A DNA stretch of 64,000 nucleotides from an uncultured bacterium (GCA_963801165.1 CAWDDT010000011.1:460212-524211); one strand, 5' to 3'. Numbered from the stretch's first letter, positions 308 to 47,713 are shown. Translations and numbers: made by a program. The notes: generated by a model from the sequence alone, not told the origin.

Positions 308-308
308 C

Positions 309-1169: not shown

Positions 1170-1195
1170 GTCGGCCGGGTCGCTCACCGCATAAG
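1170..1195 (-). promoter_or_regulatory. Sigma-28-like promoter of the flgB operon
   Basis: CTT-ATGCGGTGAGCGACCCG-GCCGAC (N17), shared with five other sites in the window. Confidence 0.7.
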
Positions 1196-1213
1196 GGCTA
1201 ATACCGCATAAGG
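1186..1213. repeat. 11-bp direct repeat ACCGCATAAGG x2 (17-bp period) overlapping the -35 of the flgB promoter
   Basis: Exact copies at 1186-1196 and 1203-1213. Confidence 0.8.
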
Positions 1214-1248
1214 TCTAGTGAGGAGATAGCCGCCCCTGTCGAGGCTTC

Positions 1249-1518
1249 CTACCCCGTGTGGTGCGGGCTCTTCTCGACGACGGCGATGGCGGCAACGACC
1301 GCAACCGCGACCCTTGCTCTCTCCTTGGCCTTCTCGGCGTCGATTCGTTTCAGGATCCGTCCCATATCTGACGACGAGTAGCCGGGGTGCAGTTTCGACA
1401 AGGTGAGGGCTATCACGTCGTCGCGGCACGGCCCGCAGGTCTGGATATGGTCGTGGCCGGTCAAGAGGCGGTCGACTGTCGCCGGGACTATCTGCTCTAG
1501 ATCGTTGGTTACTGACAT
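1249..1518 (-). CDS. ComFB-family protein (candidate cyclic di-nucleotide receptor)
   Basis: 89 aa: V.N..E..V, CGPCRDDVIALTLSKLHPGY (CxxCxxD..AL.L..L...Y) and C-terminal V...PHH match the ComFB family; GAGG RBS. Confidence 0.8.
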   Translation of the reverse strand: MSVTNDLEQIVPATVDRLLTGHDHIQTCGPCRDDVIALTLSKLHPGYSSSDMGRILKRIDAEKAKERARVAVAVVAAIAVVEKSPHHTG

Positions 1519-1603
1519 TGAAATCACCTCGTGGTGCGATGGTGCCGGCATGACGCCCGGCACCCCGGGTTGTTGCGAGACTGGAGGAAACTCCACACCT
1601 TCT

Positions 1604-2071
1604 CTAGGCCTTTCCCGAATGCGAGCTGAAAGCCCCGTCATCGAACCGAAGCGAGGCACGGCGGGCACTCGTGCCCCCCACGCACGATGCGTCGGGCCGG
1701 AAACCGTGCTTGCGGAGGAGTTGGATCGCGAGATCGGTGTTGCGCTCTCCGATGCCTGCCGACTCGGAGTTGCCGCCGAACGTGAACATCTGGGCACCCC
1801 CTACCACCCATGCCTTGCACCGTATCTTGGCGATTCCGGCTTCTGCCAGCTTATCCAGAAGGAACGGGACGGCCGTCTCCACGTACTTGCCCGGCTGATC
1901 GGGCACCTCCCCGGCCCGTGGCTGAGCGAGCAAGGAGTGGGCGGCGACGGCGAATTTCCCCGGCATGGCGATAAAGATCCCGGCGCAGCTGCCGAGACCG
2001 ATCATCTCGATCACGTCACCGGGATCGGTGGCGACCGCGGTCTGCCCGATGCTCACAACATATCTCGCCAT
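1604..2071 (-). CDS. cheD: Chemoreceptor glutamine deamidase CheD
   Basis: GLGSC catalytic motif, AHSLL, PGKY, GGAQMF, IGERN, VGG..R. Confidence 0.93.
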   Translation of the reverse strand: MARYVVSIGQTAVATDPGDVIEMIGLGSCAGIFIAMPGKFAVAAHSLLAQPRAGEVPDQPGKYVETAVPFLLDKLAEAGIAKIRCKAWVVGGAQMFTFGGNSESAGIGERNTDLAIQLLRKHGFRPDASCVGGTSARRASLRFDDGAFSSHSGKA

Positions 2072-2634
2072 CAGACAAGGGACTCCACATGTCGCAGCGA
2101 CGATGGACCGGGGAAGTAGACGAGCTCGGCAGGAGCACGCCCGTCATTGAGACGGAGCCAGCAGCGCACCAGCGTGTAGGGCTCGGTGTCGGACGCCATC
2201 GCCAGCACGGTCTCCATGATCGCCGCCCGGCTGCCACTTGCGGTCGCCGGGGGCTCGTAGTGGCCCTGTAGTCCGAACATCGAGCCGATAGCCTCGAGGA
2301 AGCGGGCGGCAAAGATGTTGCCGATCTCTCCTATGGCCGCCGCTTCGAGCTCAAGAGGAGCGCCCAGAGCCGCAAGGTAGGGGGCGGGGTCTTCGATGAA
2401 GAGCGTGATCACACCGTCGAGATCCCCGCTGCACGCGAGAAGCACCACAGCTGTGTTCGGGCTCCGACCACTAATCAGCAGCTCGCAGGCAGTAGGTAGG
2501 TCGACCTGGTAGGCGACCGGCGGGTCGAGGGTCACCTGTGAGTGCAGGAACCCGGCAAGCGCGGTGGCGGCGTTCCCGGTCCCGATGTTTGCTATCTCGC
2601 TGTAGGCCTCGAGATACCGATCTTGAGCCACCAT
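2071..2634 (-). CDS. cheC: CheY-P phosphatase CheC
   Basis: Two E-x2-N sites (SEIANIGTGNAATAL; GEIGNI); translationally coupled to cheD. Confidence 0.9.
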   Translation of the reverse strand: MVAQDRYLEAYSEIANIGTGNAATALAGFLHSQVTLDPPVAYQVDLPTACELLISGRSPNTAVVLLACSGDLDGVITLFIEDPAPYLAALGAPLELEAAAIGEIGNIFAARFLEAIGSMFGLQGHYEPPATASGSRAAIMETVLAMASDTEPYTLVRCWLRLNDGRAPAELVYFPGPSSLRHVESLV

Positions 2635-2695
2635 TTGTGATTCTCCTCGATTGAGTCCGGCACGTCGGTCAGGAAATGAGCCGGCTCTGCACCCT

Positions 2696-2721
2696 GTCGG
2701 CCGGTGCCCAAATAGGGAAAG
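2696..2721 (-). promoter_or_regulatory. Sigma-28-like promoter of cheC-cheD-comFB
   Basis: CTT-TCCCTATTTGGGCACCG-GCCGAC (N17). Confidence 0.7.
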
Positions 2722-2804
2722 TGGAATCTTCCGCCACCTCGACGGTCAAGGCAATCCGATCGCAGAGAGCCGCACCATTGCATAGGGGTGCGCGCGTTGG
2801 TCTG

Positions 2805-2830
2805 CTTTAGCGTTCCAACCAACGGCCGAC
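2805..2830 (+). promoter_or_regulatory. Sigma-28-like promoter of the fliM-che operon
   Basis: CTT-TAGCGTTCCAACCAACG-GCCGAC (N17). Confidence 0.7.
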
Positions 2831-2852
2831 TTTGAGCAGGTAGTCGCAACCA

Positions 2853-3797
2853 GTGAAGGCGCCTGTGCCCCAGAAAACCCTCAGTCAGAGTCAAATCGAC
2901 GCACTCATCGCTGCCGCGGGCAGAAAGGTCGAGCCCTACGACTATCACGTCGGCAAGGCGTTCGACAGCGGAACCGTTGCCGAGATCTCGTCGCTTCACA
3001 AAGCGTTCGCCACAGAGCTCGCCGCACGACTCACCGCGCTGCTACAAGTGCCTGTCCTGGTCGAGGATCAGGGAATCGATCAGGCCCGGTTCGAGTCCTA
3101 CGTAAATGCTCTGCCCAGCCCGACCATGGTCGGTGTCATCTCTTTGCGCCCCGGCGACTACATGGCCGTCACCGATATCGCCAACCATCTCGGCTTCGCC
3201 ATGCTCGACGTGCTGCTCGGCGGGACCGGTCGACCGGCAGGCTTCCGCGCCTTCACAGATCTGGAAGCCATCCTCCTCGGCGAGATCATCGAAAAGATCG
3301 GCTGGGCCGTACGTGCGGCCTTCGAGACTCACATCGTGTTCGAGCCGTCGGTCGCAGAGATCCAGTCCCGACCAGCGATAGGCCACGTGTCGGTTGCCTC
3401 CGACTCTGTCCTCATCCAATCGTTTCGGGTACGGCTCGACGCCCCATACGCCAGTGAGGGAATCCTCAGCATCTGCTACCCCCGCAGGCTTCTCGAGGCC
3501 ATCCTCGAGAATCGCCCCGGTAGGGAACGGGCCGAGGACGATGGGACGACCAACGGAGCAACTGCCAACAAGGTCGAGGAAGCACCAGTCCATCTGAGTG
3601 CTCGAATCAACGGAGCCACCCTCACGCTCAGTGAGCTGTCGCTCCTCCAGCCGGGCGACGTAGTCGTGCTCGGGAACCCCGTCGACGAGCCGGCCATGGT
3701 CTCCGCCGGCGGCGTCAAATTGTTCACAGGCGAGGTTGGCCGTCACAACGGCCACGTCGCCCTCCGTATCGGCAAATGGATGCGCAATGACCACTGA
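2853..3797 (+). CDS. fliM: Flagellar motor switch protein FliM
   Basis: N-terminal CheY-binding LSQSQIDALI, YD motif, D.LLGG.G, R.FT.LE, C-terminal SpoA domain (LQPGDVV.L). Confidence 0.92.
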   Translation: MKAPVPQKTLSQSQIDALIAAAGRKVEPYDYHVGKAFDSGTVAEISSLHKAFATELAARLTALLQVPVLVEDQGIDQARFESYVNALPSPTMVGVISLRPGDYMAVTDIANHLGFAMLDVLLGGTGRPAGFRAFTDLEAILLGEIIEKIGWAVRAAFETHIVFEPSVAEIQSRPAIGHVSVASDSVLIQSFRVRLDAPYASEGILSICYPRRLLEAILENRPGRERAEDDGTTNGATANKVEEAPVHLSARINGATLTLSELSLLQPGDVVVLGNPVDEPAMVSAGGVKLFTGEVGRHNGHVALRIGKWMRNDH

Positions 3798-4695
3798 AAT
3801 CAATCAGCAAGCGACGCCCGGTCTCGCAGGCGCGGCGGCAGCCATGATCGGGGGTTCCGCCAAGAACCTCGGCCAGCTGCTCGGAGTGCCTGTTGAGTTC
3901 ACACTGCTCGAGATCGGCGACGCCAAGACTCATGTACCGGAAATCATCGAGGAGGGCGTGCACCTCAGCGTCGACTTCACCGGGGCCCTCTCCGGCGACT
4001 CGTGGCTGGTCGTGTCTTCGGAGGACGCCAAGACCATCGTCAGGATCATGACCAAGGGCATGGGCGTCAACGAGGAGGACCTGTTGGGCGAGCTGGGCAT
4101 GTCGGCCTTGTCGGAGGCGATGAACCAGCTGATGGCCGGAGCCGCCACCGCGCTCAGCGACGGGCTGGGTGAACGTATCGACATCTCCCCGCCGACGATC
4201 TCGACCAACCCGGAACCTACAGAGGACGAGGGCGATGCGATTGTCGTCACCTACCAGGGCGAAATCGGCGGGCAGGCCCGGTCCAAGGTCTACTGGAAGA
4301 TCGACCGCGAGCTCGCCGCGAGCCTCGGCACTCGCTGGCTCGCCTCTACAGCCGAGGAGCCGCCGGCTGCGGTGACCGAACAGCCCGCGACACCGGCGGC
4401 GCCGACTCCGGCCGTCGCTCAGACCGCTCCGACCGCCTCGGTCGCACCGCTGGGTGGGGGCGTCCTCGGCTCTGTCGAGCTGGACATAGCCGTCGAGCTC
4501 GGAAACGTCTCGATGACCATCGGCCAGCTTCTCCGGATGGGAGAAGGCAGCGTCGTGACCCTCAACCAATCTGTCGGAGACAACGTCGTCATGCTCGCCA
4601 ACGGCACCCGCGTGGCGAGTGGGGAAGTCGTCATTGTCGACGGCACTCTTGGGTTCCGCGTCGCGGAGCTCATCACGGAAGCCAAAGGAGCGTAA
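3787..4695 (+). CDS. fliY: Flagellar switch phosphatase FliY (CheC-like domain + FliN/SpoA domain)
   Basis: SALSEAMNQLM CheC-type site and IDISPP; Pro/Ala linker; FliN domain (VELG..., ANG..VASGEVVIVD..LGFRV). Confidence 0.85.
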   Translation: MTTEINQQATPGLAGAAAAMIGGSAKNLGQLLGVPVEFTLLEIGDAKTHVPEIIEEGVHLSVDFTGALSGDSWLVVSSEDAKTIVRIMTKGMGVNEEDLLGELGMSALSEAMNQLMAGAATALSDGLGERIDISPPTISTNPEPTEDEGDAIVVTYQGEIGGQARSKVYWKIDRELAASLGTRWLASTAEEPPAAVTEQPATPAAPTPAVAQTAPTASVAPLGGGVLGSVELDIAVELGNVSMTIGQLLRMGEGSVVTLNQSVGDNVVMLANGTRVASGEVVIVDGTLGFRVAELITEAKGA

Positions 4696-4701
4696 CGGGA
4701 C

Positions 4702-5061
4702 ATGGCAAGGATAATGATCGTCGACGACAACGCATTCATGCGTAGCACGATAAAGGGGGTGTTGACCCAGGCAGGCTTCGATATCGCCGCGGAAGCGACG
4801 GATGGAGCCGAGGCGGTCAGCACCTACGCGACAGCACAGCCTGATCTCGTCACCATGGACATCACAATGCCCAACATGGACGGGGTCGAAGCCCTCAAAG
4901 AGCTGCTCAAGGCAGACCCCGGAGCCAAGGTAGTGATGGTTTCTGCGATGGGCCAGGAGTCGCTGGTTGTCGAAGCAGTCACCGCAGGCGCAGTCGATTT
5001 TGTCATCAAGCCGTTCGAGCCGGATCGTGTCGTCGACGCGATCAACAAAGCCCTGGCTTGA
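4702..5061 (+). CDS. cheY: Chemotaxis response regulator CheY
   Basis: Single REC domain resembling Bacillus/Thermotoga CheY (IVDD.AFMR, DLVTMDITMP.MDG, SAMGQ, DFVIKPF). Confidence 0.93.
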   Translation: MARIMIVDDNAFMRSTIKGVLTQAGFDIAAEATDGAEAVSTYATAQPDLVTMDITMPNMDGVEALKELLKADPGAKVVMVSAMGQESLVVEAVTAGAVDFVIKPFEPDRVVDAINKALA

Positions 5062-5084
5062 GCGTCATTCAAATGGAGGAAACA

Positions 5085-5570
5085 ATGCAAGCGATTGAGA
5101 AGCAGGATCAACTGCAGCTCGTTGCCTTCCGGCTCGGGGCCGAGGAGTACGCGATCCCGATCGAGATGGTGGAGAGCATCATCAAGCTCGGACCGTTGAC
5201 CAGTGTCCCCGGCTCGCCGTCATATGTGCGCGGCGTCATGAACCTGCGGGGACGCATCATGTCTGTCATCGACCTCCGGCACCGTTTCGGAATGCCCTCC
5301 GAAGCGGATCAGCCGGATGGCCGGATCCTCGTTGTCCAGTACGGCGACACGACCATCGGGTTGCTCGTCGACAGTGTCTCGGAGGTGTTCAACCTGGACG
5401 AGATGGAGTTCCAGCCGCCGCCACCGGAACTGGGCAACGGTGCCGTCGGCGGAGTCGACGGGATTGTACATGCCGGCAACCGGCTGATCGTCCTGCTCAA
5501 CGTGGAATCCATTCTCCGCTCCACCGCGGACATCGAGTCCGCGGGTGATATGGCGACCACCACGTCATGA
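5085..5570 (+). CDS. cheW: Chemotaxis coupling protein CheW
   Basis: LVAFRLG.EEYAI, VPGSP.YV.GVMNLRG.I, GLLVDSVSEV; GGAGG RBS before the ATG at 5085. Confidence 0.95.
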   Translation: MQAIEKQDQLQLVAFRLGAEEYAIPIEMVESIIKLGPLTSVPGSPSYVRGVMNLRGRIMSVIDLRHRFGMPSEADQPDGRILVVQYGDTTIGLLVDSVSEVFNLDEMEFQPPPPELGNGAVGGVDGIVHAGNRLIVLLNVESILRSTADIESAGDMATTTS

Positions 5571-6616
5571 ACACGACGAGCCGTGTTGTAGTTGTCGACG
5601 ACTCTGCCATGATGCGGCAGACGGTATCTGACGCCCTCACCGCCATACGCGGTGTTGAGATCGTGGCCGTTGCGGCCAGCGGTCCCGAAGCCGTCAGAGT
5701 CATCGCCGAGTACAAGCCCGATATCGTTTCCCTCGATATCGAGCTTCCCGGACTGAATGGTCTCGGGGTCCTCCAAAAGACGATGCAAGACAATCCGACA
5801 CGGGTCGTTCTGGTGTCTGCTCACACCACGGCAGGTGCGGAAACAACGATCGAGGGGCTCGCCCTCGGTGCGCTCGACTTTGTGCCGAAGCCGAGCGCTA
5901 CGGAAGGCATCGACGTCTTCCGGGTTCGGCTGCGAAGAACGTTCCGGGCGGCTCTTGCCGCCAAGCTCCCTCAGCCGGCCTCGGCGACGCGAGCGCCGAT
6001 CGTCGGCGAAATCGCACCCCTGCGACCTACGTCGCTCGCCGTGATCGCTTCCTCGACAGGAGGACCACAGGCGCTCCATGACTTCTTCTCGGCGTTCACC
6101 AGGACGCCCCCGTTCCCTATCGCTGTTGTCCAGCACATGCCTCCCACGTTCACGGCGAAGATGGCTGAGCGTCTCGATCGAATCGGCGTTGTCGCAGTTG
6201 CCGAGGCGCAAGACGGTGATCGTCTCGAGCGGGGCAGGGCGCTGATCGCTCCCGGTCACGCTCACCTGGAGATCCATGGGGACCGGGTCAGGTTGAGCGA
6301 CAGCCCGCCTGTGGGTGGTCTCCGCCCCCGCGCCGACATCGCCATGACCACGGCCGTTGAGCACTACGGCGAGCACATGATCGCAATGGTGATGACCGGG
6401 ATGGGCACCGACGGGCTGATCGGTTGCCGCGACGTCAAGCGCTCCGGTGGCCAGATCATCGCCCAGGATGGCCCTTCCTCGACCGTGGACGGCATGCCGC
6501 GCGCCATCCGCAACGCCGGTATCGCCGATCGGATCGGCCCACCCCATGTCATGGCCAGGATCCTCGAGGCGACTCCGGCAGAGCCGAGACGCCTCGCCCC
6601 GGCGGAAAGGCTGTGA
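5567..6616 (+). CDS. cheB: Chemotaxis methylesterase CheB (REC + esterase)
   Basis: REC domain plus SSTGGP, QHMP and TGMGTDG catalytic motifs. Confidence 0.95.
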   Translation: MNTTSRVVVVDDSAMMRQTVSDALTAIRGVEIVAVAASGPEAVRVIAEYKPDIVSLDIELPGLNGLGVLQKTMQDNPTRVVLVSAHTTAGAETTIEGLALGALDFVPKPSATEGIDVFRVRLRRTFRAALAAKLPQPASATRAPIVGEIAPLRPTSLAVIASSTGGPQALHDFFSAFTRTPPFPIAVVQHMPPTFTAKMAERLDRIGVVAVAEAQDGDRLERGRALIAPGHAHLEIHGDRVRLSDSPPVGGLRPRADIAMTTAVEHYGEHMIAMVMTGMGTDGLIGCRDVKRSGGQIIAQDGPSSTVDGMPRAIRNAGIADRIGPPHVMARILEATPAEPRRLAPAERL

Positions 6617-6617
6617 T

Positions 6618-7400
6618 GTGAACACCCTAGAGGCAGTGCGCACCATCATGAGCCGGTACGAGTCACTCGAGATCGGGGGGATTCGCGATGCCCAGCTCGA
6701 ACGTCGCATCTCGAGCTTCATGCGTCGGTCGGCTATCGGCGACGAGGCAGAGCTGCTCGCCGGTCTGCGGCGCGACCCCGCGCTACGGGCTCGCATGATC
6801 GACGCACTGACGATCAACGTCACCTCCGTTTACCGGAATGCCTCCGCGTGGGACCTCCTCCGCAAGGAGTTCCTCCCCGGGATGGGACACCGCGTCAAGA
6901 TGTGGAGTGCCGGTGCATCGACGGGTGCCGAGGCGTACTCGATGGCGATCGTCGCCAAGGAGAACGGGCAGACCGCCGACATAACCGCGACCGACATCGA
7001 CCAGCGCAGCCTCGACAAGGCAGTCCTCGGTCGGTACTCGAAACAAGAACTCAACGAGGTGCCCACCGACATACGGGCGAAGTACTTCACCGAGGACGAT
7101 GACGAATGGGTCGTCGACCCTACTCTGCGCCGGTCGATCCGTTTCGCTAAACACGATCTCCTGGCCGAGCCCGCAGTTGGCAGTCGGTTTGACCTGATCG
7201 CTTGCCGGAACGTCGTTATCTACTTCAGCGCCGCCGCCCAGCGCGACCTCCATCGCAAACTGGCGGCTGCACTTCGCCCCGGCGGGGTGCTCTTCATCGG
7301 AGGGGCCGAGCGTGTCGCAGAACCGGAGGCGCTCGGCCTCGAAACAAAGCAACGACCCTTCTACGTGCGTAGGGAAGACATCAAGGCGGTAGCGGTATGA
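6618..7400 (+). CDS. cheR: Chemotaxis methyltransferase CheR
   Basis: LTINVT..YRN, WSAGASTG.EAYSMA, ATDID, FDLI.CRNV.IYF, L.PGG.L.IG; GTG start after the cheB stop. Confidence 0.93.
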   Translation: MNTLEAVRTIMSRYESLEIGGIRDAQLERRISSFMRRSAIGDEAELLAGLRRDPALRARMIDALTINVTSVYRNASAWDLLRKEFLPGMGHRVKMWSAGASTGAEAYSMAIVAKENGQTADITATDIDQRSLDKAVLGRYSKQELNEVPTDIRAKYFTEDDDEWVVDPTLRRSIRFAKHDLLAEPAVGSRFDLIACRNVVIYFSAAAQRDLHRKLAAALRPGGVLFIGGAERVAEPEALGLETKQRPFYVRREDIKAVAV

Positions 7401-9379
7401 ACACGGAATATCTCGATCAATTCGTCGAGGAAGCTCGAGAGAACGCCGAGGAGCTCGTCGCCGGTCTCCTCAGGCTCGAGAATGAGGAGGGCGACGCGGT
7501 CGTCGCCACTATCGCCGAGCTCTTCCGCTATGCCCACAACATCAAAGGTATGGCCGCGACCGTCGGCATCGACGCCATGACCATCGTGTCGCATCGGATG
7601 GAGGATCTACTCGAGCACTACCGGCAAGGCGGTGGGAGCCCGACACCCGAAGAGACAGATCTTCTGCTGTCGGGCTGCGACGTCCTCTCCGCCATGGTCG
7701 ATGAAGCGGCGGCAGGGACGAATCCTGAGATGCCGGTGGCGTTGATCGGCCAGTTCGACGGACACGCCGCAGCCCTCAACGGTGCCGGCACCAAGCCGGA
7801 GAAGGACACACCGGCTCCCGAAGAAGCGGAGAACCCGTCGGCACCGGCGACAGCCGATCCGGCGTCGTCAGGACAGCCGACGCATCGCCTCACAGTGAAG
7901 CTTGCCGACGATTGCCAACTGCCCGGGGCCCGAGCCGCCATGGTCATGCGTACGGCCTCAGCGGCGGGAAAGGTCGAGGCAACAGCCCCGTCTCACGAGG
8001 AGATCATCTCCGGTGGGATCAAAGAGTTCAGCCTGGACATGAGCGGCGTCGCCGACGTCGCTGCCCTCCTGACCCGGATCGCCGGCATTGCCGACGTGTC
8101 CGAAGTGACCGAGCAGCCGCTGGCGCCAAAGCCGCAAAAGGCCGCCGAGACCACATCGGCGCAGCGGGCCACGGTTCGTGTGGAGATCGAACGTCTCGAC
8201 GCGTTGATGGATCTCGTCAGCGAGCTCGTTATCGCTCGTGGACAGCTGGAACAACAGGTCGGGCTGTCCGGTGACCGCCAGATCCACGAATCGGTGGCCG
8301 GTACGGCACGTTTGATCTCGGACCTCCAGGCGCTGGTAGCGAAGGTGCGCATGGTCACTCTCGAGTCGACGTTCCGGCGGATGAACCGTCTCGTACGCGA
8401 CACGGCACGAACGCTGGGCAAGAAGATCAACTTCGAGATGACCGGCGCTGAGACCGAACTCGACAGACGCATGGTCGACGAGCTGAGCGACCCTCTCGTC
8501 CACCTGCTCCGCAATGCCGCCGACCACGGCGTCGAGACATCGAAGGAACAGCGCCTTGCCGCCGGCAAGCCGGAGGCGGGCACAATGCGTCTGGCGGCGT
8601 ATCACGAAGGCAACCAGGTCGTGATCGAGGTCAGCGACGACGGTCCCGGGATCAACACCGAGAGGGTGTGCGCCAAAGCCGTTGAGAAAGGAATCATCGG
8701 AGCAGATGACGTTGGCGCTCTCACCCATGCCCAGAAGCTCGATCTGGTGTTCGCACCGGGTCTGTCAACACGGACCGAAGCGAGCACCATCTCGGGCCGG
8801 GGCGTCGGCATGGATGTTGTCCGCTCATCAGTCAATCGTCTCGGCGGATCGGTAAGCGTCGAATCGAACAACGGTCAAGGAAGCATCTTCCGGCTACGGC
8901 TGCCGATGTCCCTAGCTGTTCTCGAAGCCTTGCTCGTGACGGTGGGCAACGAAACGTGGGCCGTGCCGCTCGCGCACATCGTCGAGACCATCGTCATCGG
9001 CAAGGACGACCTCCGCTGGGTACAGGGAGATCCCGTCATCACTCTGCGAGGAGCGACCATTCCGGTGATCCCGGGAAGCTGCCAGCTCTCCGGTGAATCC
9101 ACGATGCGCACCCCAACACCGGCCATCGTCTACCAGTACCAGGGCAGGCGCTGTGCGCTCACCGTCGACCAGCTCCTCACCCAGACCGAGGTCGTCGTCA
9201 AGCCGTTGCCCGGCTCGCTCGACGCCTCCCACGTCTCAGGGGTAACCATCCTCGGCGACGGAACGGTCGGGCTGATCCTCGATCTGGACAGCATTACCGC
9301 TGCGTACACGGCGCGAGATCGGTCGACGCGCATCAGCGTTGTCGACGAAGAAGAGCTAGTTCTGACCGGCGAGGTGTGA
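7397..9379 (+). CDS. cheA: Chemotaxis histidine kinase CheA
   Basis: HPt FRYAHNIKG, P2, dimerisation TVRV..ERLD.LM, HLLRNAADHG, SGRGVGMDVV, CheW domain. Confidence 0.97.
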   Translation: MNTEYLDQFVEEARENAEELVAGLLRLENEEGDAVVATIAELFRYAHNIKGMAATVGIDAMTIVSHRMEDLLEHYRQGGGSPTPEETDLLLSGCDVLSAMVDEAAAGTNPEMPVALIGQFDGHAAALNGAGTKPEKDTPAPEEAENPSAPATADPASSGQPTHRLTVKLADDCQLPGARAAMVMRTASAAGKVEATAPSHEEIISGGIKEFSLDMSGVADVAALLTRIAGIADVSEVTEQPLAPKPQKAAETTSAQRATVRVEIERLDALMDLVSELVIARGQLEQQVGLSGDRQIHESVAGTARLISDLQALVAKVRMVTLESTFRRMNRLVRDTARTLGKKINFEMTGAETELDRRMVDELSDPLVHLLRNAADHGVETSKEQRLAAGKPEAGTMRLAAYHEGNQVVIEVSDDGPGINTERVCAKAVEKGIIGADDVGALTHAQKLDLVFAPGLSTRTEASTISGRGVGMDVVRSSVNRLGGSVSVESNNGQGSIFRLRLPMSLAVLEALLVTVGNETWAVPLAHIVETIVIGKDDLRWVQGDPVITLRGATIPVIPGSCQLSGESTMRTPTPAIVYQYQGRRCALTVDQLLTQTEVVVKPLPGSLDASHVSGVTILGDGTVGLILDLDSITAAYTARDRSTRISVVDEEELVLTGEV

Positions 9380-9380
9380 T

Positions 9381-10848
9381 GTGACCACGATGACGGAGGC
9401 TCCCCCGGAGAAGGCGGCGGACACGTCCGCGGCGCCGGCGAGCGCGACTACGTCATCGCCGTCACGCAACAACGGGCTCCTGGTGGCTCTCGGTGTCAAC
9501 GAAGCTGCACTACAGCGAGCCCGAGACACCAGCGGGTTCGAAGTGAGTACCGATGCTGCGGAGCTACAAGCCGCCACGCTCGTGGCGATCTCCACACGGA
9601 TGGGACGGGGGAAGGCCCCGCGGATACCGGAGGACATCGACCGCGAGGTTACGCCTGTGGTGGTCATCTGCCATCCCGGTGGTGAGGAGACCGCCGTCGA
9701 GCTGATGCGCCAGGGCTGCTCCGGCGTCATTGCCGAAGGCAACGAGAGAGCCCTCGGCTCATTCGTGGACCCGGACCAACACACCGACGTCCTCATGGAT
9801 GGCTACCTGGAGCAGCTCGAGAAGACACGCGGGAGGCAGCACCCGCCGCCGCGATCCGGTGACCAACCTTCCGGAAGTAGCGTCGTTCGAGATGCGGCTC
9901 GGCGAGTTCATCGAGGCCGGGACTCCGCCCAACGTGATGATGATGCAGATCACCAACCTGGACCACGCCCGAGACCGCACGGACTCGAGGGCGATCAACC
10001 TGCTCCGGCGCCGCCTGGCGAGCTTCTACAACGATGCGGCGCAGCGGTACTCCTGCGAGGTGTTCAGCCTCGGGCAATCGACGTTTGCGGTACTCGACGG
10101 GAAACAGCTACTTGTCAGCCCGGAGCGCTTTGCCCACGAGCTGATCCAGATGACCGAGGCTTTCCGTCCCGCCGGAATCAAGCTGAAGCTTGCGGTTGGC
10201 GCCGTCATCGCCAGCGCCGAGAGCGAAGTGATGGCAATCCGCGACCAGGCGGAACAGGCCGTTGTCGCTGCGGCGCAGGCCGACGGGAGCTCGTATGTAA
10301 CCGCCGACCAGGTGACGGTCCTGCTGGCCGCTATTACCGAATACTCGGTTGCTCAGCTTCTCGTGGGTATCGTCGACAGCCTGGTTCCCGGTCCTCCCGG
10401 ACACAGCAACCGGGTGACCGAGCTCGCCTCCGACCTCGCCAGAGAGCTCGGGTATCAAGGCCGCGAGCTCAACAACCTGCGATTGGCAGCACTCCTACAC
10501 GAGGTGGGGCGGCTCCCGCTCGGCGACGAAGATCCGGTCACCGACGAGACCCACCCGGAACGAGGCGCCCGCTACGTGCTTGCGTCTGCGGGCCCTGAGA
10601 TCGCTGACGCGATCCGGTATCAAGCCGAGCGATGGGATGGGGCCGGCCCGGCCGCGCTCGTCGAAGACGACATCCCGCTTTCGGCCCGGATCATCGCCAT
10701 CGCCGAGGCGACCGACGACCTCCTTTACCCACCGTCCGGTCAGCCCGTGGCGCCAAACGAGCTGATCGAGAAGCTCGAGGCGGAGTCCGGGTCGCGATTC
10801 GACCCCAACCTGGTGAACACGGCGGTGCGTCTGTTCGGCGGGATGTAG
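9381..10848 (+). CDS. Degenerate REC-like/GGDEF/HD-GYP protein, frameshifted near 9831 (ORFs 9381..10598 and 9730..10848)
   Basis: Removing one G at 9831-9833 joins LEKTRG to GSTRRRDPVTNLP (GGDEF entry motif); C-terminal HD-GYP fold GHS.RV, ERWDG, IPLSARII, G..FDP. Confidence 0.75.
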
Positions 10849-10954
10849 CGGCCTCAAACGTCGATGAGGCCGGAGTCCCCTCCGTGAATCTGCACCGGTG
10901 GACTGCGCATCTGGTGTGCGGTCTTGACATCATCTACGCCGACCTGGAGGACTG

Positions 10955-12040
10955 ATGACCACCACCTCATCATCCGATGAGGTCACGGTCGATGCGCTAC
11001 AGCAGAAGATCTTCCTGCTCGAACAGGGGCTGAAGCAGTCGGCGCATCTCAGGGAGCTGTGGACGAACGCGGTCCGCGAGCTGAAGGCCACCAGGGCTGA
11101 GCTGAGGAGATCCCTGGAGCGTTTGACCGAAGCCCACGAGCAGCTGGAGCAGAAGAGTGTCTCCTTGGAGAGGCTCAACCAGCATCTCAGTGAGGAGATG
11201 GAGCTTCGGGAGAGAATGGAGACCGAGCTGCGGCTGGCGCAGAAACTCGAATCGATCGGACAGCTCGCCGCGGGCCTTGCGCACGAGATCAACACGCCCA
11301 TTCAGTACATCGGGGACAACACCAGATACCTCGGCACCGACTTCGACGCGTGTCTGGCACTCTTCGACCAGCTCCGACCGATCCTCGACGAGAATGCCGA
11401 CCCCGCCATCCTCCTCGACAGGGCAAGACAGATCGTGGAGACCGAGGACCTCGCCGGACTGGCCGAAGATGTCCCCGACGCCCTGACCGAGACTCTCGAA
11501 GGCATCGAACAGGTGGCCGAGATCGTCAGCTCCATGAAGGAGTTCTCGCACCACGGGACCCAGGGCAAGACACCCGTTGACATCAACCGCGCCCTGCAGG
11601 TCACCGCCACAGTCGCTCGCAGCGAATGGAAAGACGTCGCGGAGATCGAATGGCAGCTTGCGGAGCTGCCCGACGTCTACGCCGTGGGGGCGGAGCTGAA
11701 CCAGGTGTTCCTCAATCTCCTCGTGAACGCCGCCCAGGCCGTAGCGGAAGCGGCAAAGAAGAGAACCAGCCCGCCGGGTGTCATCAAGATCACCACCGCT
11801 GTTGCCGCAGGCGGAGTCTCCGTCGAGGTGACCGACAACGGCATCGGCGTTCCCGATGACGTCAAGGAGCACATATTCGATCTCTTCTTCTCCACGAAGG
11901 ATGTAGGCGTCGGGACGGGCCAGGGGTTGTCGATTGCACGCTCGATCGTCGTCGACCGCCACAACGGGACGATTGACATGGTCTCCGAGCCCGGCGTCGA
12001 GACGAGCTTCGTGATATGGCTACCGATAGGCTGCGGGTAG
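10955..12040 (+). CDS. Soluble sensor histidine kinase (coiled coil + HisKA + HATPase)
   Basis: QKLESIGQLAAGLAHEINTP H-box, LNQVFLNLLVNA, DNG.G, FFSTK..G.GTGQGL. Confidence 0.92.
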   Translation: MTTTSSSDEVTVDALQQKIFLLEQGLKQSAHLRELWTNAVRELKATRAELRRSLERLTEAHEQLEQKSVSLERLNQHLSEEMELRERMETELRLAQKLESIGQLAAGLAHEINTPIQYIGDNTRYLGTDFDACLALFDQLRPILDENADPAILLDRARQIVETEDLAGLAEDVPDALTETLEGIEQVAEIVSSMKEFSHHGTQGKTPVDINRALQVTATVARSEWKDVAEIEWQLAELPDVYAVGAELNQVFLNLLVNAAQAVAEAAKKRTSPPGVIKITTAVAAGGVSVEVTDNGIGVPDDVKEHIFDLFFSTKDVGVGTGQGLSIARSIVVDRHNGTIDMVSEPGVETSFVIWLPIGCG

Positions 12041-12067
12041 CCACGGGCTACGACCGAACCGACATCC

Positions 12068-12334
12068 TCAGATCGTCGGGTCGAGGAGACAGCGCACATA
12101 GAGCGCCTCGATCGCGTCGAGGTGCATCTCCGCGACACCGTCTGCGCTCAAAGCGTCGCGCAACGCCGTCATGCCGTCCGACCCGGGCACTTCGCCCCGG
12201 ATGGCGGCGTAGGCCGTCTCCATGAGATCGGGAGCGCACGACGAGGACACCAGACGCTGCGAGACTTGATCGTTTATCGAACGCATCCGCTCGGAGATGC
12301 GTCGCAACTGGGCGAGGTTCTCACTGGATCCCAT
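12068..12334 (-). CDS. Small hypothetical protein (88 aa)
   Basis: Strong RBS GGAAGGAGG before MGSSENLAQLRR; directly downstream of murI-macro. Confidence 0.6.
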   Translation of the reverse strand: MGSSENLAQLRRISERMRSINDQVSQRLVSSSCAPDLMETAYAAIRGEVPGSDGMTALRDALSADGVAEMHLDAIEALYVRCLLDPTI

Positions 12335-12359
12335 CGGGTTCCTCCTTCCGGTGGAAACC

Positions 12360-13706
12360 CTATCGCAACGGTCGCGACCACGTTGTGTCGAATGACCAGC
12401 CGTTGGGGGAAATTGCCCCGGCGACTCCGGATCTGAAGAGATCGGCCACCGCGCCATCGAGTGCGACCAGAACCGCTTCGGCGACCGCTCCCGGGTTGGC
12501 ATCGAGCCAGCGCACAACCTCGGAGGCGAGCACGGCGGTGGCCTCCGGCACGGGATAACCGTAGATTCCGGCGGAGATGGCAGGAAAAGCAATCGTCCGC
12601 GCGTCGATGGCCCGGGCCGCGTCGAGCGCACCCGATACTGCTGCCCGCAGCATGCCCTCATTGTCTTGACCCGACCGATATATCGGCCCGGCGACGTGGA
12701 CGACGTGAGCGGCGGGTAATGCGCCTGCCCCGGTGACAGCTGCGCCGCCAACGGATAGCGGCCCGTGCTCACGCACCCATCGCGTCGACTCGGTTTGGAT
12801 CGCCGCACCCCCCGCCCGCACGATCGCACCGGCAACACCACCACCGTGCTGGAGGTGAGTGTTGGCGGCATTGACAATGACGTCGACGTTCTGCCGGGTG
12901 AGGTCCCCAACGATCACCCGGATACTCCCCTGTGCCCCGATCATCACCCAGCCGGGACCCGCCTCGATCCCGACCAGAGTCCCGACCTGATCACGAAACG
13001 ACGTGACATTGCCGGTGGTGAGGAACTCAACCGATGCACCAGTCGCGGGCTCACCAACCATCCGCAACACCTGTCGGGCAACCGCGGGAGCGGGATCGAC
13101 CACCGTTATGTCGGGACCGGCGACTGCGGCAATGGCATCGAGCACAAACGGGTAGTGCGTGCAGCCGAGCACGAGAGTGTCGACGCCTGCTTTGCGCAAT
13201 GGCGTGACGTAGCGGGCAACGAGGGCCCGTGTCTCTTCGGCGTCGCCCCCCAGCTGCTCGATGGCGCCGGCCAATCCCGGACAGGCCTGCTCGATGACTG
13301 TGGCCCCGTTGGCGTGGCGGTCAAGGACCGATGCGTACAGCTCTCCCTGAAAGGTGGCGTCTGTGGCCAACACACCGATGACCCCACGGCGACTCTGCGT
13401 CGCGGCCGGCTTCACGGCCGGCTCCATGCCGACGAAGCGCACAGCGGGAAACACTTCCCGCAGGTGATGAAGCGCCGCGGCGGAGGCGCTGTTACACGCG
13501 ACGACCACCACATCGCAGTCGCGCCCGACCAGATACGAGGATATCGCTACAGCACGGTCTCGGACTTCCGTCAGACTTCGCTCACCATACGGAGCCATGG
13601 CCTGGTCGGCGACGTAGATCAACGGATGCCCGGGAGCGAGCTTCAGGAACTCGTTGAGGACCGACAGACCGCCAACGCCGGAATCGAATACACCTACTCG
13701 TCCCAT
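12360..13706 (-). CDS. murI: Glutamate racemase fused to a C-terminal macro domain
   Basis: FDSGVGGLSV, PYG, VACNSAS, LGCTHYP; then GDLT, VNAAN, GGGVAGAI, HVAGP, AISAGIYGYP, all in one open frame. Confidence 0.9.
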   Translation of the reverse strand: MGRVGVFDSGVGGLSVLNEFLKLAPGHPLIYVADQAMAPYGERSLTEVRDRAVAISSYLVGRDCDVVVVACNSASAAALHHLREVFPAVRFVGMEPAVKPAATQSRRGVIGVLATDATFQGELYASVLDRHANGATVIEQACPGLAGAIEQLGGDAEETRALVARYVTPLRKAGVDTLVLGCTHYPFVLDAIAAVAGPDITVVDPAPAVARQVLRMVGEPATGASVEFLTTGNVTSFRDQVGTLVGIEAGPGWVMIGAQGSIRVIVGDLTRQNVDVIVNAANTHLQHGGGVAGAIVRAGGAAIQTESTRWVREHGPLSVGGAAVTGAGALPAAHVVHVAGPIYRSGQDNEGMLRAAVSGALDAARAIDARTIAFPAISAGIYGYPVPEATAVLASEVVRWLDANPGAVAEAVLVALDGAVADLFRSGVAGAISPNGWSFDTTWSRPLR

Positions 13707-13802
13707 CTCGCAGGTGACGATAGCGCCTGACCCTCCGGGTCAGGTTCGAGTTTGCTACGCAAACTCGGCCTCGTGGCTCGGGTCAGGCGTTATCCTCGCC
13801 GG

Positions 13803-14627: not shown

Positions 14628-14655
14628 ACACGCCGGGTTTTTCGGTGGTTAATCG

Positions 14656-14681
14656 CTTACGCCATGGGGTGTCTGGTCGAC
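14656..14681 (+). promoter_or_regulatory. Sigma-28-like promoter of flagellin
   Basis: CTT-ACGCCATGGGGTGTCTG-GTCGAC (N17). Confidence 0.7.
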
Positions 14682-14696
14682 TGGTCCTTCTGAAAC

Positions 14697-14743: not shown

Positions 14744-14749
14744 CACGAA

Positions 14750-15568
14750 GTGCGTATTAATCAGAACATTGCGGCATACAACGCATACCGCAATCTTTCC
14801 ACGACCAATGCTCAGTTGAGTAAGTCGCTCGAGAAGCTGTCTTCGGGTTTCCGGATCAATCGTGCTGCTGATGATGCGGCCGGGTTGGCGAAGTCTGAGT
14901 CGCTCCGTGCGGAGATCTCGGGTTCCCGTCAGGCGATCCGGAACGCTCAAGATGGTGTGAGTTTTGTCCAGACCGCTGAGGGTGCTCTCAATGAGGTGCA
15001 TTCGATCCTGCAGCGTATGCGTGAGTTGGCTGTTGATGCGGCCAACACTGCAACCACCGACGGTACTGCCCAGCAGGCCGAGGTGACCCAGCTGCTGGCA
15101 GAGATCACCTCGATCGGCACCAACAGCACATTCGCAGGCAACAGTGTCTTCCAGGACTACTCGTCGGGTACCGCGCTGACGTTCCATGTCGGTTCCGGCG
15201 CCGGCCAGACGCTGGAGATCAGCGAGAACCTCGCCTTGTCCTCGAGCGACGTGTTCGGCACCAACCTGTCCACCGTCAGCGTCTCGTCCGATGCCAATGC
15301 GGCGATCACGGCCATCGACAATGCGATCGACGCAGTGTCCTCGACCAGGTCGACTCTTGGTGCTACCCAGAACCGTCTGGAGCACACGGTGGCGAACCTG
15401 AGTGTCGCTGTTGAGAACCTGTCGGCTTCCGAGTCCCGGGTTCGTGACACCGACATGGCTGAAGAGATGGTGTCGTTCACCCGGCATCAGATCATGGTTC
15501 AGGCGGGCACTGCGATGCTTGCCCAGGCCAACCAGGTCCCGGCATCGGTCCTCCAACTCCTCCAGTGA
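14750..15568 (+). CDS. fliC: Flagellin (minimal, 272 aa)
   Basis: RINQN, LEKLSSGFRINRAADDAAGLA, LQRMRELAV, LGATQNRLEH, ASESRVRDTDMAEEM, QANQ.P..VL.LL. Confidence 0.98.
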   Translation: MRINQNIAAYNAYRNLSTTNAQLSKSLEKLSSGFRINRAADDAAGLAKSESLRAEISGSRQAIRNAQDGVSFVQTAEGALNEVHSILQRMRELAVDAANTATTDGTAQQAEVTQLLAEITSIGTNSTFAGNSVFQDYSSGTALTFHVGSGAGQTLEISENLALSSSDVFGTNLSTVSVSSDANAAITAIDNAIDAVSSTRSTLGATQNRLEHTVANLSVAVENLSASESRVRDTDMAEEMVSFTRHQIMVQAGTAMLAQANQVPASVLQLLQ

Positions 15569-15622: not shown

Positions 15623-15648
15623 CTTGATTGAGACGAGGTGGTGCCGAC
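15623..15648 (+). promoter_or_regulatory. Sigma-28-like promoter of the glycosyltransferase
   Basis: CTT-GATTGAGACGAGGTGGT-GCCGAC (N17), immediately after the flagellin terminator. Confidence 0.68.
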
Positions 15649-15681
15649 GGAAAGAGGGCGTAGTCCCGAAGGGAGCCCTCA

Positions 15682-46053: not shown

Positions 46054-46129
46054 TCGTCTCCCAGCCGGATTCGGTGAGATCGGTGTCCGGGTCGATCAGT
46101 CGGATGGCAATCGGATATCGTTTGGGACA

Positions 46130-47131
46130 ATGACCGACCATCACCACCAACCCGGGCCACGGTGGTCAAAACTCGTCCACTTCTTCAGACATCATCATGA
46201 TCACGGCAGCGGGCAAACGCCGGGCGATCTGGGAGTCGAAGGAATCCGGGCGACCAAGATCTCTCTGGCCGGTCTTGGAGCGACGGCTCTGCTCCAAGCC
46301 GCCCTGGTCGCTGTCACCGGGTCGGTCGCGCTCCTCTCCGACACCATCCACAACTTCACCGATGCTCTCACGGCGGTCCCACTCTGGCTGGCGTTCTCGC
46401 TCGGTCGCAGGCCGCACAACAAGCGGTACACGTACGGCTATCACAGAGCCGAGGATCTCGCCGGCGTCGTCATCGTCATCGCCATCGGGCTCTCGGCGGG
46501 GGGCGTGGCCTGGGAGTCGATCCGTCGTCTCGCCGAGACCCGTCACATCGACCACGCCGGGTGGGTGATCGTTGCCGGGATCGTCGGTGCTATCGGCAAC
46601 GAGCTGGTCGCCCGGTACCGGCGCAGGGTCGGGCTGAGGATTGGCTCAGCCGCGCTCGTCGCCGACGCCGACCATGCCCGGGCCGATGCGCTCACCTCGC
46701 TGACGGTCGTGCTTGCCGGGGTCGGGGCGTACCTTGGCTGGATCTGGGTAGACCCGGTCGCCGGGCTCTTTGTCGCGGCGATGATCCTCCGGCTGCTGTT
46801 GCAGGCGTCACGCACGATGATGGAGCGGCTGATGGACGCCGTCGATCCAGAGATTGTGGACCGGGTCGAGCGGGTCGTGTCCGCACGAGAAGGCGTGCTC
46901 GGCGTCAACGACATTCGAGCCCGTCACCAGGGCTATCTCCTCCTGATCACGCTGTGCATCCTTGTCGACCCCGATATCACCATGGCCCAGGGTCATGCCA
47001 TCGCCCACGAGGTCGAACACGACCTGCTCCACGAGTTTCCCAACGCGGGAGAGGCTGTGATCCACGTCGATCCGCTCGGTGACGAGGATCCACACAACGT
47101 GGCCTCGCATCACACCCATCCCGAGGGGTGA
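46130..47131 (+). CDS. Cation diffusion facilitator (CDF) transporter
   Basis: His-rich N-terminus, SVALLSDTIHN..D, YGY.RAE, S.AL.AD..H...D, IHVDP. Confidence 0.93.
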   Translation: MTDHHHQPGPRWSKLVHFFRHHHDHGSGQTPGDLGVEGIRATKISLAGLGATALLQAALVAVTGSVALLSDTIHNFTDALTAVPLWLAFSLGRRPHNKRYTYGYHRAEDLAGVVIVIAIGLSAGGVAWESIRRLAETRHIDHAGWVIVAGIVGAIGNELVARYRRRVGLRIGSAALVADADHARADALTSLTVVLAGVGAYLGWIWVDPVAGLFVAAMILRLLLQASRTMMERLMDAVDPEIVDRVERVVSAREGVLGVNDIRARHQGYLLLITLCILVDPDITMAQGHAIAHEVEHDLLHEFPNAGEAVIHVDPLGDEDPHNVASHHTHPEG

Positions 47132-47241
47132 GACCGGCGTCTCCGTGACGGCTCGACACCGGGGAAACATCGGGGTCATCCCCGATTTCGTCGGCGTGAC
47201 AGCCGTTGTATCGATGGGTACAGCTTTCACAGGGAGACGCG

Positions 47242-47625
47242 ATGAAGATCGCCTTTGCGGTATTTCTTTTCATACACGGCCTCGCTCACGGTGTCGGGTT
47301 CCTCACCGTGTCCGGCCTCGTCCAGAACTCGGATCAGCCTTCCGAGCCAACGTTCCTGCTCACGGGTTTCGCCAAAGAGCATTGGGTGTTCAAGATCATG
47401 GCGGTTGTGTGGCTGATCGGGCTGGTTGGGTTCATGATCGCCGGTTTCGCCGTACTCGGCGGGACCGATTGGGCATTCACCGCGATCGTGGCTGCCACCA
47501 TCCTGTCGACGGCTCTCAGCCTGCTCTGGGTGAAGTCTGCGCCGTTCGGCATCGTCGCCAACCTGATCGTGGTGGCGGCTCTGCTCATACCCGTGGTGTC
47601 CGATCGGGTCCTACCCCCGGCCTGA
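47242..47625 (+). CDS. Small four-TM membrane protein
   Basis: Hydrophobic ORF with HGLAHG motif and GGAG RBS. Confidence 0.7.
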   Translation: MKIAFAVFLFIHGLAHGVGFLTVSGLVQNSDQPSEPTFLLTGFAKEHWVFKIMAVVWLIGLVGFMIAGFAVLGGTDWAFTAIVAATILSTALSLLWVKSAPFGIVANLIVVAALLIPVVSDRVLPPA

Positions 47626-47687
47626 CCTCGATCCAACCCGTCGGCCGGATGAGCTCCGGTAGCGGCCCGGCTGCCACCGCCCGGCGC

Positions 47688-47713
47688 CTTATCGGCGGGC
47701 GCCTGTTGCCGAC
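47688..47713 (+). promoter_or_regulatory. Sigma-28-like promoter of the hybrid kinase
   Basis: CTT-ATCGGCGGGCGCCTGTT-GCCGAC (N17), 35 bp before the GTG start. Confidence 0.62.

Follow-up and report, generated by a model that had tools for sequence, protein, structure and literature searches.

The stretch of DNA analysed here, 64,000 nucleotides (nt) from an uncultured bacterium (GCA_963801165.1 CAWDDT010000011.1:460212-524211) and hereafter called the window, carries flagellar and chemotaxis genes preceded by a recurrent bipartite motif, CTT-N17-GYCGAC, which had been proposed, from the sequence of the window, to be a non-canonical promoter of the sigma-28 type defining a motility regulon. 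The window is part of the 4.55-Mb host genome (G000, 64% G+C, 13 contigs; window at G000:C11:460212-524211), and the host is a member of the Acidimicrobiia: WhiB and Bpa genes in the window (Pfam) mark it as an actinobacterium, and a contig search with a sigma factor gene from its flagellar cluster confirmed one relative only, a metagenome-assembled genome of that class. At the left end of the window lie fliE, flgC and flgB, the opening genes of a large basal-body operon, followed by a cheC-cheD-ComFB unit, a long unit running from fliM to cheA, a flagellin gene, a gene for a GT2 glycosyltransferase and, some 30 kb further on, a gene for a hybrid sensor kinase (Table 1).

An exact-pattern scan found all six sites of the original prediction where it had placed them, every one noncoding and directed at the gene it had named, with the gene identities confirmed by Pfam. 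Five of the six carry GCCGA, and the site before the flagellin gene is the only one with GTCGAC in place of GCCGAC; the site before the glycosyltransferase gene comes right behind the flagellin terminator hairpin. The window holds seven exact matches in all, against 1.51 expected from 100 dinucleotide shuffles (standard deviation 1.2, maximum 5). The seventh lies about 100 nt inside an open reading frame (ORF) equipped with a Shine-Dalgarno sequence and an ATG of its own, and we judge it a chance hit of the expected kind, outside the regulon.

Table 1. Motif sites and genes of the window, and related features elsewhere in the host genome. Positions count from the first letter of the window unless a contig is named; PWM, position weight matrix.
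Feature	Position	Strand	Sequence or family evidence	Score
Putative sigma-28-type promoter of flgB-flgC-fliE-fliF... operon	1167..1195 (pattern 1170-1195)	-	CTTATGCGGTGAGCGACCCGGCCGACGGG	PWM 21.3 bits
Putative promoter of cheC-cheD-ComFB-like unit	2693..2721 (pattern 2696-2721)	-	CTTTCCCTATTTGGGCACCGGCCGACAGG	PWM 17.5 bits
Putative promoter of fliM-fliN/Y-cheY-cheW-cheB-cheR-cheA unit	2805..2833 (pattern 2805-2830)	+	CTTTAGCGTTCCAACCAACGGCCGACTTT	PWM 17.7 bits
Putative flagellin promoter	14656..14684 (pattern 14656-14681)	+	CTTACGCCATGGGGTGTCTGGTCGACTGG	PWM 18.5 bits
Putative promoter of GT2 glycosyltransferase gene	15623..15651 (pattern 15623-15648)	+		PWM 16.8 bits
Putative promoter of hybrid sensor kinase gene	47688..47716 (pattern 47688-47713)	+	CTTATCGGCGGGCGCCTGTTGCCGACTGT	PWM 22.1 bits
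Weak additional candidate site, noncoding; precedes ORF of no family (51660-52469)	52495..52523	-	CTCAACTATGGCTAGCACCCGCCGACAGA	PWM 14.1 bits
Seventh exact match, judged chance; inside ORF 63093-63890(-)	63765..63790	-		PWM <13 bits
fliE 8-319, flgC 309-710, flgB 713-1070	8..1070	-	Pfam FliE, Flg_bbr_C; flgB by position and orthologues; flgB ATG at 1070	
cheC 2071-2634, cheD 1604-2071, ComFB-domain gene 1249-1518	1249..2634	-	Pfam CheC, CheD, ComFB; cheC ATG at 2634	
fliM, fliN/Y, cheY, cheW, cheB, cheR, cheA	2853..9379	+	Pfam; fliM GTG at 2853	
Flagellin gene	14750..15568	+	Pfam Flagellin_N, Flagellin_C; GTG at 14750	
GT2 glycosyltransferase gene	15682-17706	+	Pfam; ATG at 15682	
Hybrid HisKA-HATPase-REC-REC kinase gene	47749-49716	+	Pfam; GTG at 47749	
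Cluster units with site: flagellin-fliD-fliS; two further flagellins; flbD; flgE	C11:415-460 kb region			PWM at least 13 bits
Cluster units with site: flgN-flgK-flgL-fliW-csrA; second flgN-like gene; flhB-flhA-flhF; fliN-fliOPQR				PWM at least 13 bits
Cluster units with site: flgB...fliL operon; cheC-cheD-ComFB; fliM...cheA; window flagellin; GT2 gene				PWM at least 13 bits
In-cluster divergent sigma-28 gene	C11:422300-423181		TIGR02479 at 422357-423016	187.9 bits (cut-off 189.6)
WhiG-like sigma gene	C10:159994-160773		TIGR02479 at 160075-160749	264 bits (over cut-off)

Genome-wide distribution and register of the box

Genes were called across the host genome with our own codon-usage caller, which returned 4,166 genes and left about 11% of the sequence noncoding. 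Genome-wide, CTT-N17-GYCGAC matches 89 times, 38 of them beyond the gene calls, and it lies no more than 200 nt upstream of a same-strand gene 24 times at its own spacing versus two to nine times at eleven other spacings. A dyad scan of every 4-mer at spacers of 12 to 19 nt upstream of GCCGA, which presupposed no -35 box, ranked TTAA-N15 (14.6-fold enriched upstream of genes), CTTA-N16 (13.6-fold), TAAT-N15 (12.7-fold) and CTAA-N16 (11.4-fold) highest, and these four share a single register: C-T-(T/A)-A-(A/T), 15 nt, GCCGA. Of 16 genomic matches to CTTA-N16-GCCGAC, 14 stand within 200 nt upstream of a same-strand gene; the same two boxes at eleven other spacers, N11 to N22, match one to four times each, with none or one upstream. 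A PWM of the aligned sites finds 26 matches at 17 bits or more, 25 of them noncoding and 23 within 200 nt upstream of a gene, and 49 at 15 bits or more, 41 of them noncoding. The dyad scan, the spacer control and the locations of the PWM matches together bear out a genome-wide enrichment upstream of genes.

In Pseudomonas aeruginosa numbering the consensus is (-35)C-T-T/A-A-W(-31), a 15-nt spacer and (-15)G-C-C-G-A-C(-10)-N-G(-8). Across 26 aligned sites the -35 box has C and then T in all 26, T (22) or A (4) as its third base and A as its fourth in 20; its first three positions are partly fixed by site selection, and the unbiased dyad scan yields the same box. Preferences of the flanks are independent of that selection, with W at -31 in 21/26 sites, a base other than C at -9 in 25/26 and G at -8 in 19/26. 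Among 27 noncoding matches to CTWA-N16-GCCGA, GCCGA is followed by C in 18, by T in six, by G in three and by A in none.

The canonical promoter of sigma-28 (FliA/SigD) is given as TAAA-N15-GCCGATAA, and in the sigma-28 open complex on the P. aeruginosa fliC promoter, (-36)TCTAAAG(-30)...(-15)GCCGATAA(-8), G-15 and C-14 form an extended -10 element, contacts are made to C-13 and G-12, and A-11 flips out (accessible text of PMC12784957). The single spacing enriched here is that of the same class, with C(-35) and G(-15) 20 nt apart as at fliC; the kept positions are C-35, T-34, the A at -32 and the GCCGA core with its flipped A-11, and the motif departs from the canonical promoter by T in place of A at -33 and by C-N-G in place of T-A-A from -10 to -8. 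The epithet 'non-canonical' is therefore apt only at -33 and at -10 to -8: since all positions that the structure paper describes as read base-specifically are kept, and register and core are exactly canonical, it is too strong, and 'dialect' is the fairer word. The targets, too, include those of canonical sigma-28, namely flagellin, hook-associated proteins and chemoreceptors, with the difference from enterobacteria that the same box also stands before early genes (rod, MS-ring, export gate and switch) belonging there to class 2.

Register, unbiased dyad scan and spacer control thus uphold the assignment to the sigma-28 family, and we consider it very likely that the motif is a promoter for RNA polymerase carrying a sigma factor of this family (FliA/SigD/WhiG) in an Acidimicrobiia bacterium. 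Transcription would be expected to start about 10 nt past the C of GCCGAC.

Genes behind the box and their counterparts in relatives

The remaining flagellar genes lie on the same contig upstream of the window (C11:415-460 kb; Pfam). With unit boundaries drawn from strand and gaps and a site threshold of 13 bits, a motif site stands before 14 of the 17 units in the motility region, including all four flagellins, and all three genes for methyl-accepting chemotaxis proteins (MCPs); every structural flagellar unit carries a FliA-type box, the three units without a site being non-structural. Outside the cluster it precedes, besides the three MCP genes, a CheY-like regulator, a unit encoding response regulators (RR-HDOD and RR-HD) and a GAF-kinase, two further kinases, the hybrid kinase of the window and a few genes of unknown function. 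Judged by the Pfam families of its targets, the gene set is a classical sigma-28 motility, chemotaxis and signalling regulon, in agreement with the original prediction. The 26-mer of the window's flagellin promoter recurs identically before a second flagellin copy (C11:418665-418690).

Two sites have features of their own. At the start of the flgN-flgK operon (C11:426544-426582) the ATG stands 10 nt past the C of GCCGAC, with the same spacing in relative G020; should transcription begin there, as expected of sigma-28, the operon would be leaderless. A fully canonical-looking box, CTAATGACAAT...GCCGAT (C4:390056-390081), lies upstream of a ClpC/ClpB-type ATPase gene (390183-392699), with near-identical -35 flanks recurring in G006, G008, G011, G012 and G016, and recalls the FliA-family promoter reported before clpX in Actinoplanes (accessible text of PMC13689560).

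Orthologous upstream regions keep the motif, again as predicted, at fliM, flgB and the hybrid kinase gene and over whole clusters. Before fliM, CTT-N17-GCCGAC stands 33-84 nt upstream in 9/9 loci examined, among them three other genera in which FliM identity drops to 25-28% and fliL, not cheC, is the neighbour upstream; spacers differ freely between these orthologues, with CTT and GCCGAC unchanged. For flgB, 13 loci were considered, of which two were ended by contig ends and one had no tblastn match; all ten that could be compared carry CTTA(A/T)-N15-GCCGAC(G/T)G about 120 nt upstream. The cheC site is kept in all three genomes whose cheC is divergent from fliM (G000, G014 and G005). The hybrid-kinase site, CTTATC-N14-TGCCGACTG, is kept before six of seven orthologues (62-73% identity); the seventh, in G007, where no FlhA was found, has an N17 spacer and GCCGAT. 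An orthologous CTTGATTAGCGGTGGCAACTGCCGACTGG precedes the GT2 orthologue (69% identity) in G014, the closest relative, the flagellin genes of six relatives carry the box, and in the whole flagellar clusters of six relatives from four genera it stands before the same operons throughout.

Counts over 41 related genomes follow the flagellum: CTTA-N16-GCCGAC occurs 7-16 times (median 13) in the 13 with FlhA and 0-9 times (median 2) in the 28 without, with reversed-pattern control medians of 10 and 7.5, respectively; because the relatives are not independent, these counts describe a pattern and are not a test statistic. The tallies include two unpublished genomes, G027 and G038 (no FlhA match, count 2 each), on which no conclusion depends. 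Counts of CTAA-N16-GCCGAT across the same 41 genomes separated no groups.

Relatives with an incomplete flagellar gene set also retain boxes. On contig 8 of G005 (loci L037, L041, L044 and L045), fliM and flhA lie in several pieces with in-frame stops and intact promoters, which could mean either a decaying flagellar cluster or an error-prone assembly. Two genomes in which FlhA was not found have a conserved CTTATCG...GCCGAC box (G028:C91:37544-37569 and G039:C28:57367-57392) 1-1.7 kb upstream of a sigma-28-type gene like that of the flagellar cluster in G000; sigma and box seem to outlive the flagellum in some lineages.

The sigma factors and rival readings of the box

FliA/WhiG paralogues had been anticipated in the genome, and two sigma-28-family genes are present. 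One, on C10, encodes a close homologue of WhiG from Streptomyces venezuelae (268 bits to PDB 6PFJ). The other lies 38 kb upstream of the window inside the flagellar cluster, between a flagellin gene and flbD/flgE, and its product lies about as far from WhiG (114 bits) as from P. aeruginosa FliA (108) and Escherichia coli FliA (103.5); the close homologues of this in-cluster sigma are proteins of about 286 residues from Acidimicrobiia metagenomes, several of them named FliA by their source. Among the 41 relatives, the WhiG-like sigma is found in 39, and the in-cluster type in 11 of 13 FlhA-positive and 6 of 28 FlhA-negative genomes; its linkage to the flagellar cluster recurs in G008, G014, G016, G020, G022, G059, G061 and G152. 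At class level, FlhA is found in 22 of 151 sampled Acidimicrobiia genomes, and a second sigma-28 paralogue in 16 of 21 FlhA-positive ones, in several of them on the FlhA contig and 20-35 kb away. Linkage to the flagellar cluster is also a criterion of the WhiG1 clade in the accessible text of PMC13595943, to which the in-cluster sigma can be likened by linkage, not by tree.

All in-cluster paralogues across the class share a conserved C-terminal tail of about 50 residues (...RAWFGTLYEG...KRARAAY...WRSRLDA...), which is missing from the WhiG-like paralogues and from the FliA and WhiG chains in PDB. A possible regulatory role of this tail is worth testing, with FlgM not found in the genome.

The spelling of the boxes differs between orders, and the in-cluster sigma differs with it. 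In G061 and G152, from other orders, the flagellar clusters use CTCA or CTAA with GCCGAT(A): CTCA-N16-GCCGAT occurs genome-wide 20 and 17 times, respectively, against 3 and 2 in reversed controls, with five and four sites in the flagellar cluster, and CTTA-N16-GCCGAC occurs 0 and 1 times. G059 and G108, from the window's own order, use CTTA..GCCGAC. The six sigmas of CTTA..GCCGAC lineages have RGAIIDSTR(T/S)RDWA(S/T)RSV in region 2.4/3.0 and VT(Q/E)ARVSQIR in region 4.2, and the two of CTCA..GCCGAT lineages RGALLDELRG(L/R)DWASRSV and VSESR(I/V)SQLR; WhiG-like paralogues retain DELRALDWVPRSV and TESRV(C/S)QIH. In region 4.2, S-to-A falls at the equivalent of P. aeruginosa S224, reported to contact bases -34/-35, and the I-for-L change at the equivalent of L86, reported to lie near -12 (accessible text of PMC12784957; the +5 offset that relates PDB chain and paper numbering was derived from Y76, I79 and R80). 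That sigma and promoter spelling appear to have changed together between orders is the best available argument for a particular reader: linkage, co-occurrence and this co-variation make the in-cluster sigma the probable main reader of the boxes. The comparison offers a small natural experiment, in which the spelling and a few sigma residues, one of them equivalent to the base-contacting serine described for P. aeruginosa, shift together.

A bolder interpretation, which we hold only tentatively, is that within Acidimicrobiia the flagellar sigma-28 and its promoters co-evolved a private dialect, with T at -33, C at -10 and G at -8 in the promoters and S-to-A (region 4.2) and EL-to-ST/L-to-I (region 2.4/3.0) in the sigma, and that the motility regulon is thereby partly insulated from the co-resident WhiG-type sigma. 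If true, it would be a case of natural re-tuning of specificity between two sigma-28 paralogues within one cell, and would answer the question, left open in the accessible text of PMC13595943, of whether WhiG1- and WhiG2-type regulons overlap where both coexist.

Within G000, the noncoding matches have C:T ratios right after GCCGA of 14:0 with CTTA and 4:6 with CTAA (Fisher p = 0.0016), as two dialects for two sigmas in one genome might produce, the in-cluster sigma using CTTA..GCCGAC and the WhiG-like sigma CTAA..GCCGATA. We downgraded this candidate because orthologous promoters switch letters. The flagellin promoter beside the sigma gene reads GCCGATAG in G000, G014 and G009, and has C for T in G002, G006, G007, G008 and G011 (GCCGACAG) and in G001 (ACCGACAG); orthologous flhB promoters alternate CTTA and CTAA. 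Evidently either letter is tolerated at one promoter.

The WhiG-like (WhiG2-type) C10 sigma might instead read the boxes, mainly or in addition, which would place motility under cyclic di-GMP (c-di-GMP)/RsiG-type control of the kind described, in the sources available, for Streptomyces and Rubrobacter. This sigma is the closer homologue of WhiG and has the canonical contact segments, DELRALDWVPRSV and TESRVCQIH; WhiG1 and WhiG2 are reported to recognise similar promoters (PMC13595943, accessible text), and a minority of G000 sites, one flagellin promoter among them, are fully canonical (CTAA-N16-GCCGATA). We nevertheless regard this alternative as unlikely: the WhiG-like gene occurs in nearly all relatives irrespective of flagella or motif, it is not linked to the flagellar cluster, and promoter spelling tracks the residues of the in-cluster sigma, not those of the WhiG-like one. 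G000 yielded no ORF with a convincing RsiG c-di-GMP motif, a weak negative: of the seven ORFs with one motif each that matched E(X)3S(X)2R(X)3[Q/H](X)3D in six frames, none is protein-like, which is not proof of absence.

It is very improbable that the motif is an operator of a DNA-binding motility regulator, activator or repressor, and not a promoter; any conserved upstream motif could in principle be one, and nothing specific speaks for it here, whereas the motif has two parts, is not a palindrome and strictly prefers a single spacing, is always co-oriented with its downstream gene, some 10-125 nt ahead of the start codon, agrees base for base with the sigma-28 register, and has a spacer that varies between orthologues while both boxes stay. 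Least credible of all is an artefact of chance or of base composition in a genome of 64% G+C, for which one can cite the ORF-internal seventh match in the window and a reversed-pattern control of similar total in G000 (14 versus 16), since coding DNA supplies this background and the difference lies in where the matches fall: no shuffle of the window reached seven matches (0/100), the spacer control is clean, 25 of the 26 strong matches are noncoding and positions are conserved across four genera.

Several points weigh against reading the box as a sigma-28-family promoter served chiefly by the in-cluster sigma. Six genomes have an in-cluster-type sigma though FlhA was not found in them; the co-variation rests on few, related genomes (2 versus 6); and the WhiG-like paralogue, in which every canonical DNA-contact residue is retained, might read GCCGA boxes as well. 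The PWM was built from 26 aligned sites chosen with the pattern, so that its core, although not the location statistics, is circular, and the label 'noncoding' depends on crude in-house gene calls. Three of the 17 units, namely those of the sigma gene, a GGDEF gene and an EAL-HDOD gene, have no site of at least 13 bits. It is from sequence that we infer that the boxes fire, where transcripts start, which paralogue reads the boxes and that extra housekeeping promoters are absent. Additional housekeeping promoters upstream of the early operons are possible; in Bacillus subtilis, both kinds of promoter precede the fla/che operon.

Hierarchy, known systems and transcript leaders

The original prediction had seen in the shared box a flat hierarchy, and in part this stands: the one box precedes early units (flgB-fliF, flhBA, fliM and fliOPQR) as well as late ones (flagellins, flgKL and MCPs). 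The idea is not new, and the sigma gene itself has no box, none of at least 13 bits being found before it in G000 and the five relatives scanned; there would therefore be at least two tiers. About 100 nt before the sigma start codon (C11:422214-422246; L012:4214-4246), a conserved element, AGTGACTATTT-N4-GAATGGTCATCAAGGCTAG, is common to 11 members of the genus; it contains the near-palindrome TGACTAT-N7-ATGGTCA and is a candidate operator or promoter of the cascade's top tier. In the cascade that we propose, input through this other upstream element would act on the sigma gene, and the in-cluster sigma would then fire the structural, motor and chemotaxis units together from one promoter type, driving also the four flagellins, three MCP genes, kinases, response regulators and c-di-GMP enzymes. 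Below the sigma gene, the placement of the boxes makes a flat hierarchy a reasonable reading. No genome match to FlgM (PF04316) exceeded the Pfam cut-off, the best E-value being 0.19.

Actinoplanes FliA promoters reportedly follow CTCA-N15-17-GCCGAA, the consensus given with the original prediction; the published pattern xT(C/A)Ax/GCCGA is compatible with it. The accessible text of PMC13083903 places all 11 flagellar units of A. missouriensis under FliA1/FliA2 promoters with no hook-basal-body checkpoint, a fliQ mutation leaving transcript levels unchanged, and the sigma genes under TcrA. The present system is similar in that its flagellar units stand behind FliA-family promoters, FlgM was not found where A. 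missouriensis is described as having no hook-basal-body/FlgM checkpoint, and the sigma gene appears to answer to another regulator (TcrA there, the conserved upstream element here). It differs in belonging to a unicellular Acidimicrobiia lineage known here from sequence alone, not a sporangium-forming actinomycete, in having one in-cluster paralogue against three or four, and in its -35 and -10 spelling.

For WhiG1 and WhiG2, Denis et al. (mSystems 2026, PMC13595943; accessible text) searched with a -35 of xT(C/A)Ax, a 16-nt spacer and a -10 of GCCGA, and predicted that many Actinomycetota have several WhiG-type sites in their flagellar clusters; they note that FlgM is absent. Their systems resemble ours, as far as that text goes, in the sigma-28 family of an actinomycetotal host, several sites inside the flagellar cluster, FlgM not found, chemotaxis genes and c-di-GMP enzymes among the targets, and one cluster-linked and one WhiG-like paralogue. 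The third -35 base is T here instead of C or A, and their spacer, taken literally, exceeds by one base the 15 nt that separate CTTAW from GCCGA, so that their pattern would miss most of the present sites. The string 'Acidimicrobi' is absent from the main text of that paper; its supplement, in the part available, lists Acidimicrobium ferrooxidans (WhiG1 0, WhiG2 1, RsiG 0, flagellar cluster 1) and Ilumatobacter coccineus (WhiG1 0, WhiG2 1, RsiG 1, flagellar cluster 0). A literature search on flagellar sigma factors of Acidimicrobiia found no on-topic paper. Architecture and flat hierarchy are thus already in print for other actinobacteria, and no new principle is involved; what appears to be added is the extension to Acidimicrobiia, the in-cluster paralogue with its tail, and the dialect of T at -33 and C at -10 with matching sigma substitutions. 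The extension carries the actinobacterial model, one flagellar sigma driving the entire flagellum without FlgM, to a class of largely uncultured bacteria abundant in water and soil, and supplies a promoter model with which their motility regulons can be annotated.

The leaders of flgB and of the flagellin genes have conserved features. About 90 nt of the flgB 5' leader (window 1071-1166, minus strand; also L064-L075) are highly conserved across four genera and include a small hairpin, CGAGA-(U/C)GGA-UCUCG, that has GGA in its loop and looks like a CsrA site. A long hairpin follows, GGGAAGAGCGC...GCGUUCUUCCC, whose 3' arm could pair alternatively with the ribosome-binding site GGAAAGG/GGAGG; RNAalifold gives 21 pairs for the leader, three of them with compensatory changes, and translational control of the basal-body operon is possible. 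The flagellin leaders (window 14685-14749, plus strand; C11:418597-418661; C11:422112-422175) have in common GAAACGTTGACATGGATGTTGACGAAGT, in which GGA is flanked by two GTTGAC repeats, and an AAGGAGG ribosome-binding site; their fold is no better than that of shuffles (z = -0.07). An Rfam search of window positions 1-16000 at E-values up to 1 gave only a sub-threshold match to a Burkholderia small RNA, and none for the flgB or flagellin leaders. A fliW-csrA pair lies in the flagellar cluster (C11:429398-430059). In Bacillus, FliW, CsrA and flagellin form a checkpoint, of which the flagellin leaders and the fliW-csrA pair are, by analogy, reminiscent.

An 11-nt direct repeat, CCTTATGCGGT...CCTTATGCGGT, with 5 nt between the copies (window 1186-1216, minus strand), takes in the -35 region of the flgB promoter; it is present in G000 only and not in the flgB upstream regions of relatives. 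ComFB proteins are described as cyclic-dinucleotide receptors; the ComFB-domain gene of the window sits between cheD and the flgB promoter and is also kept in G014.

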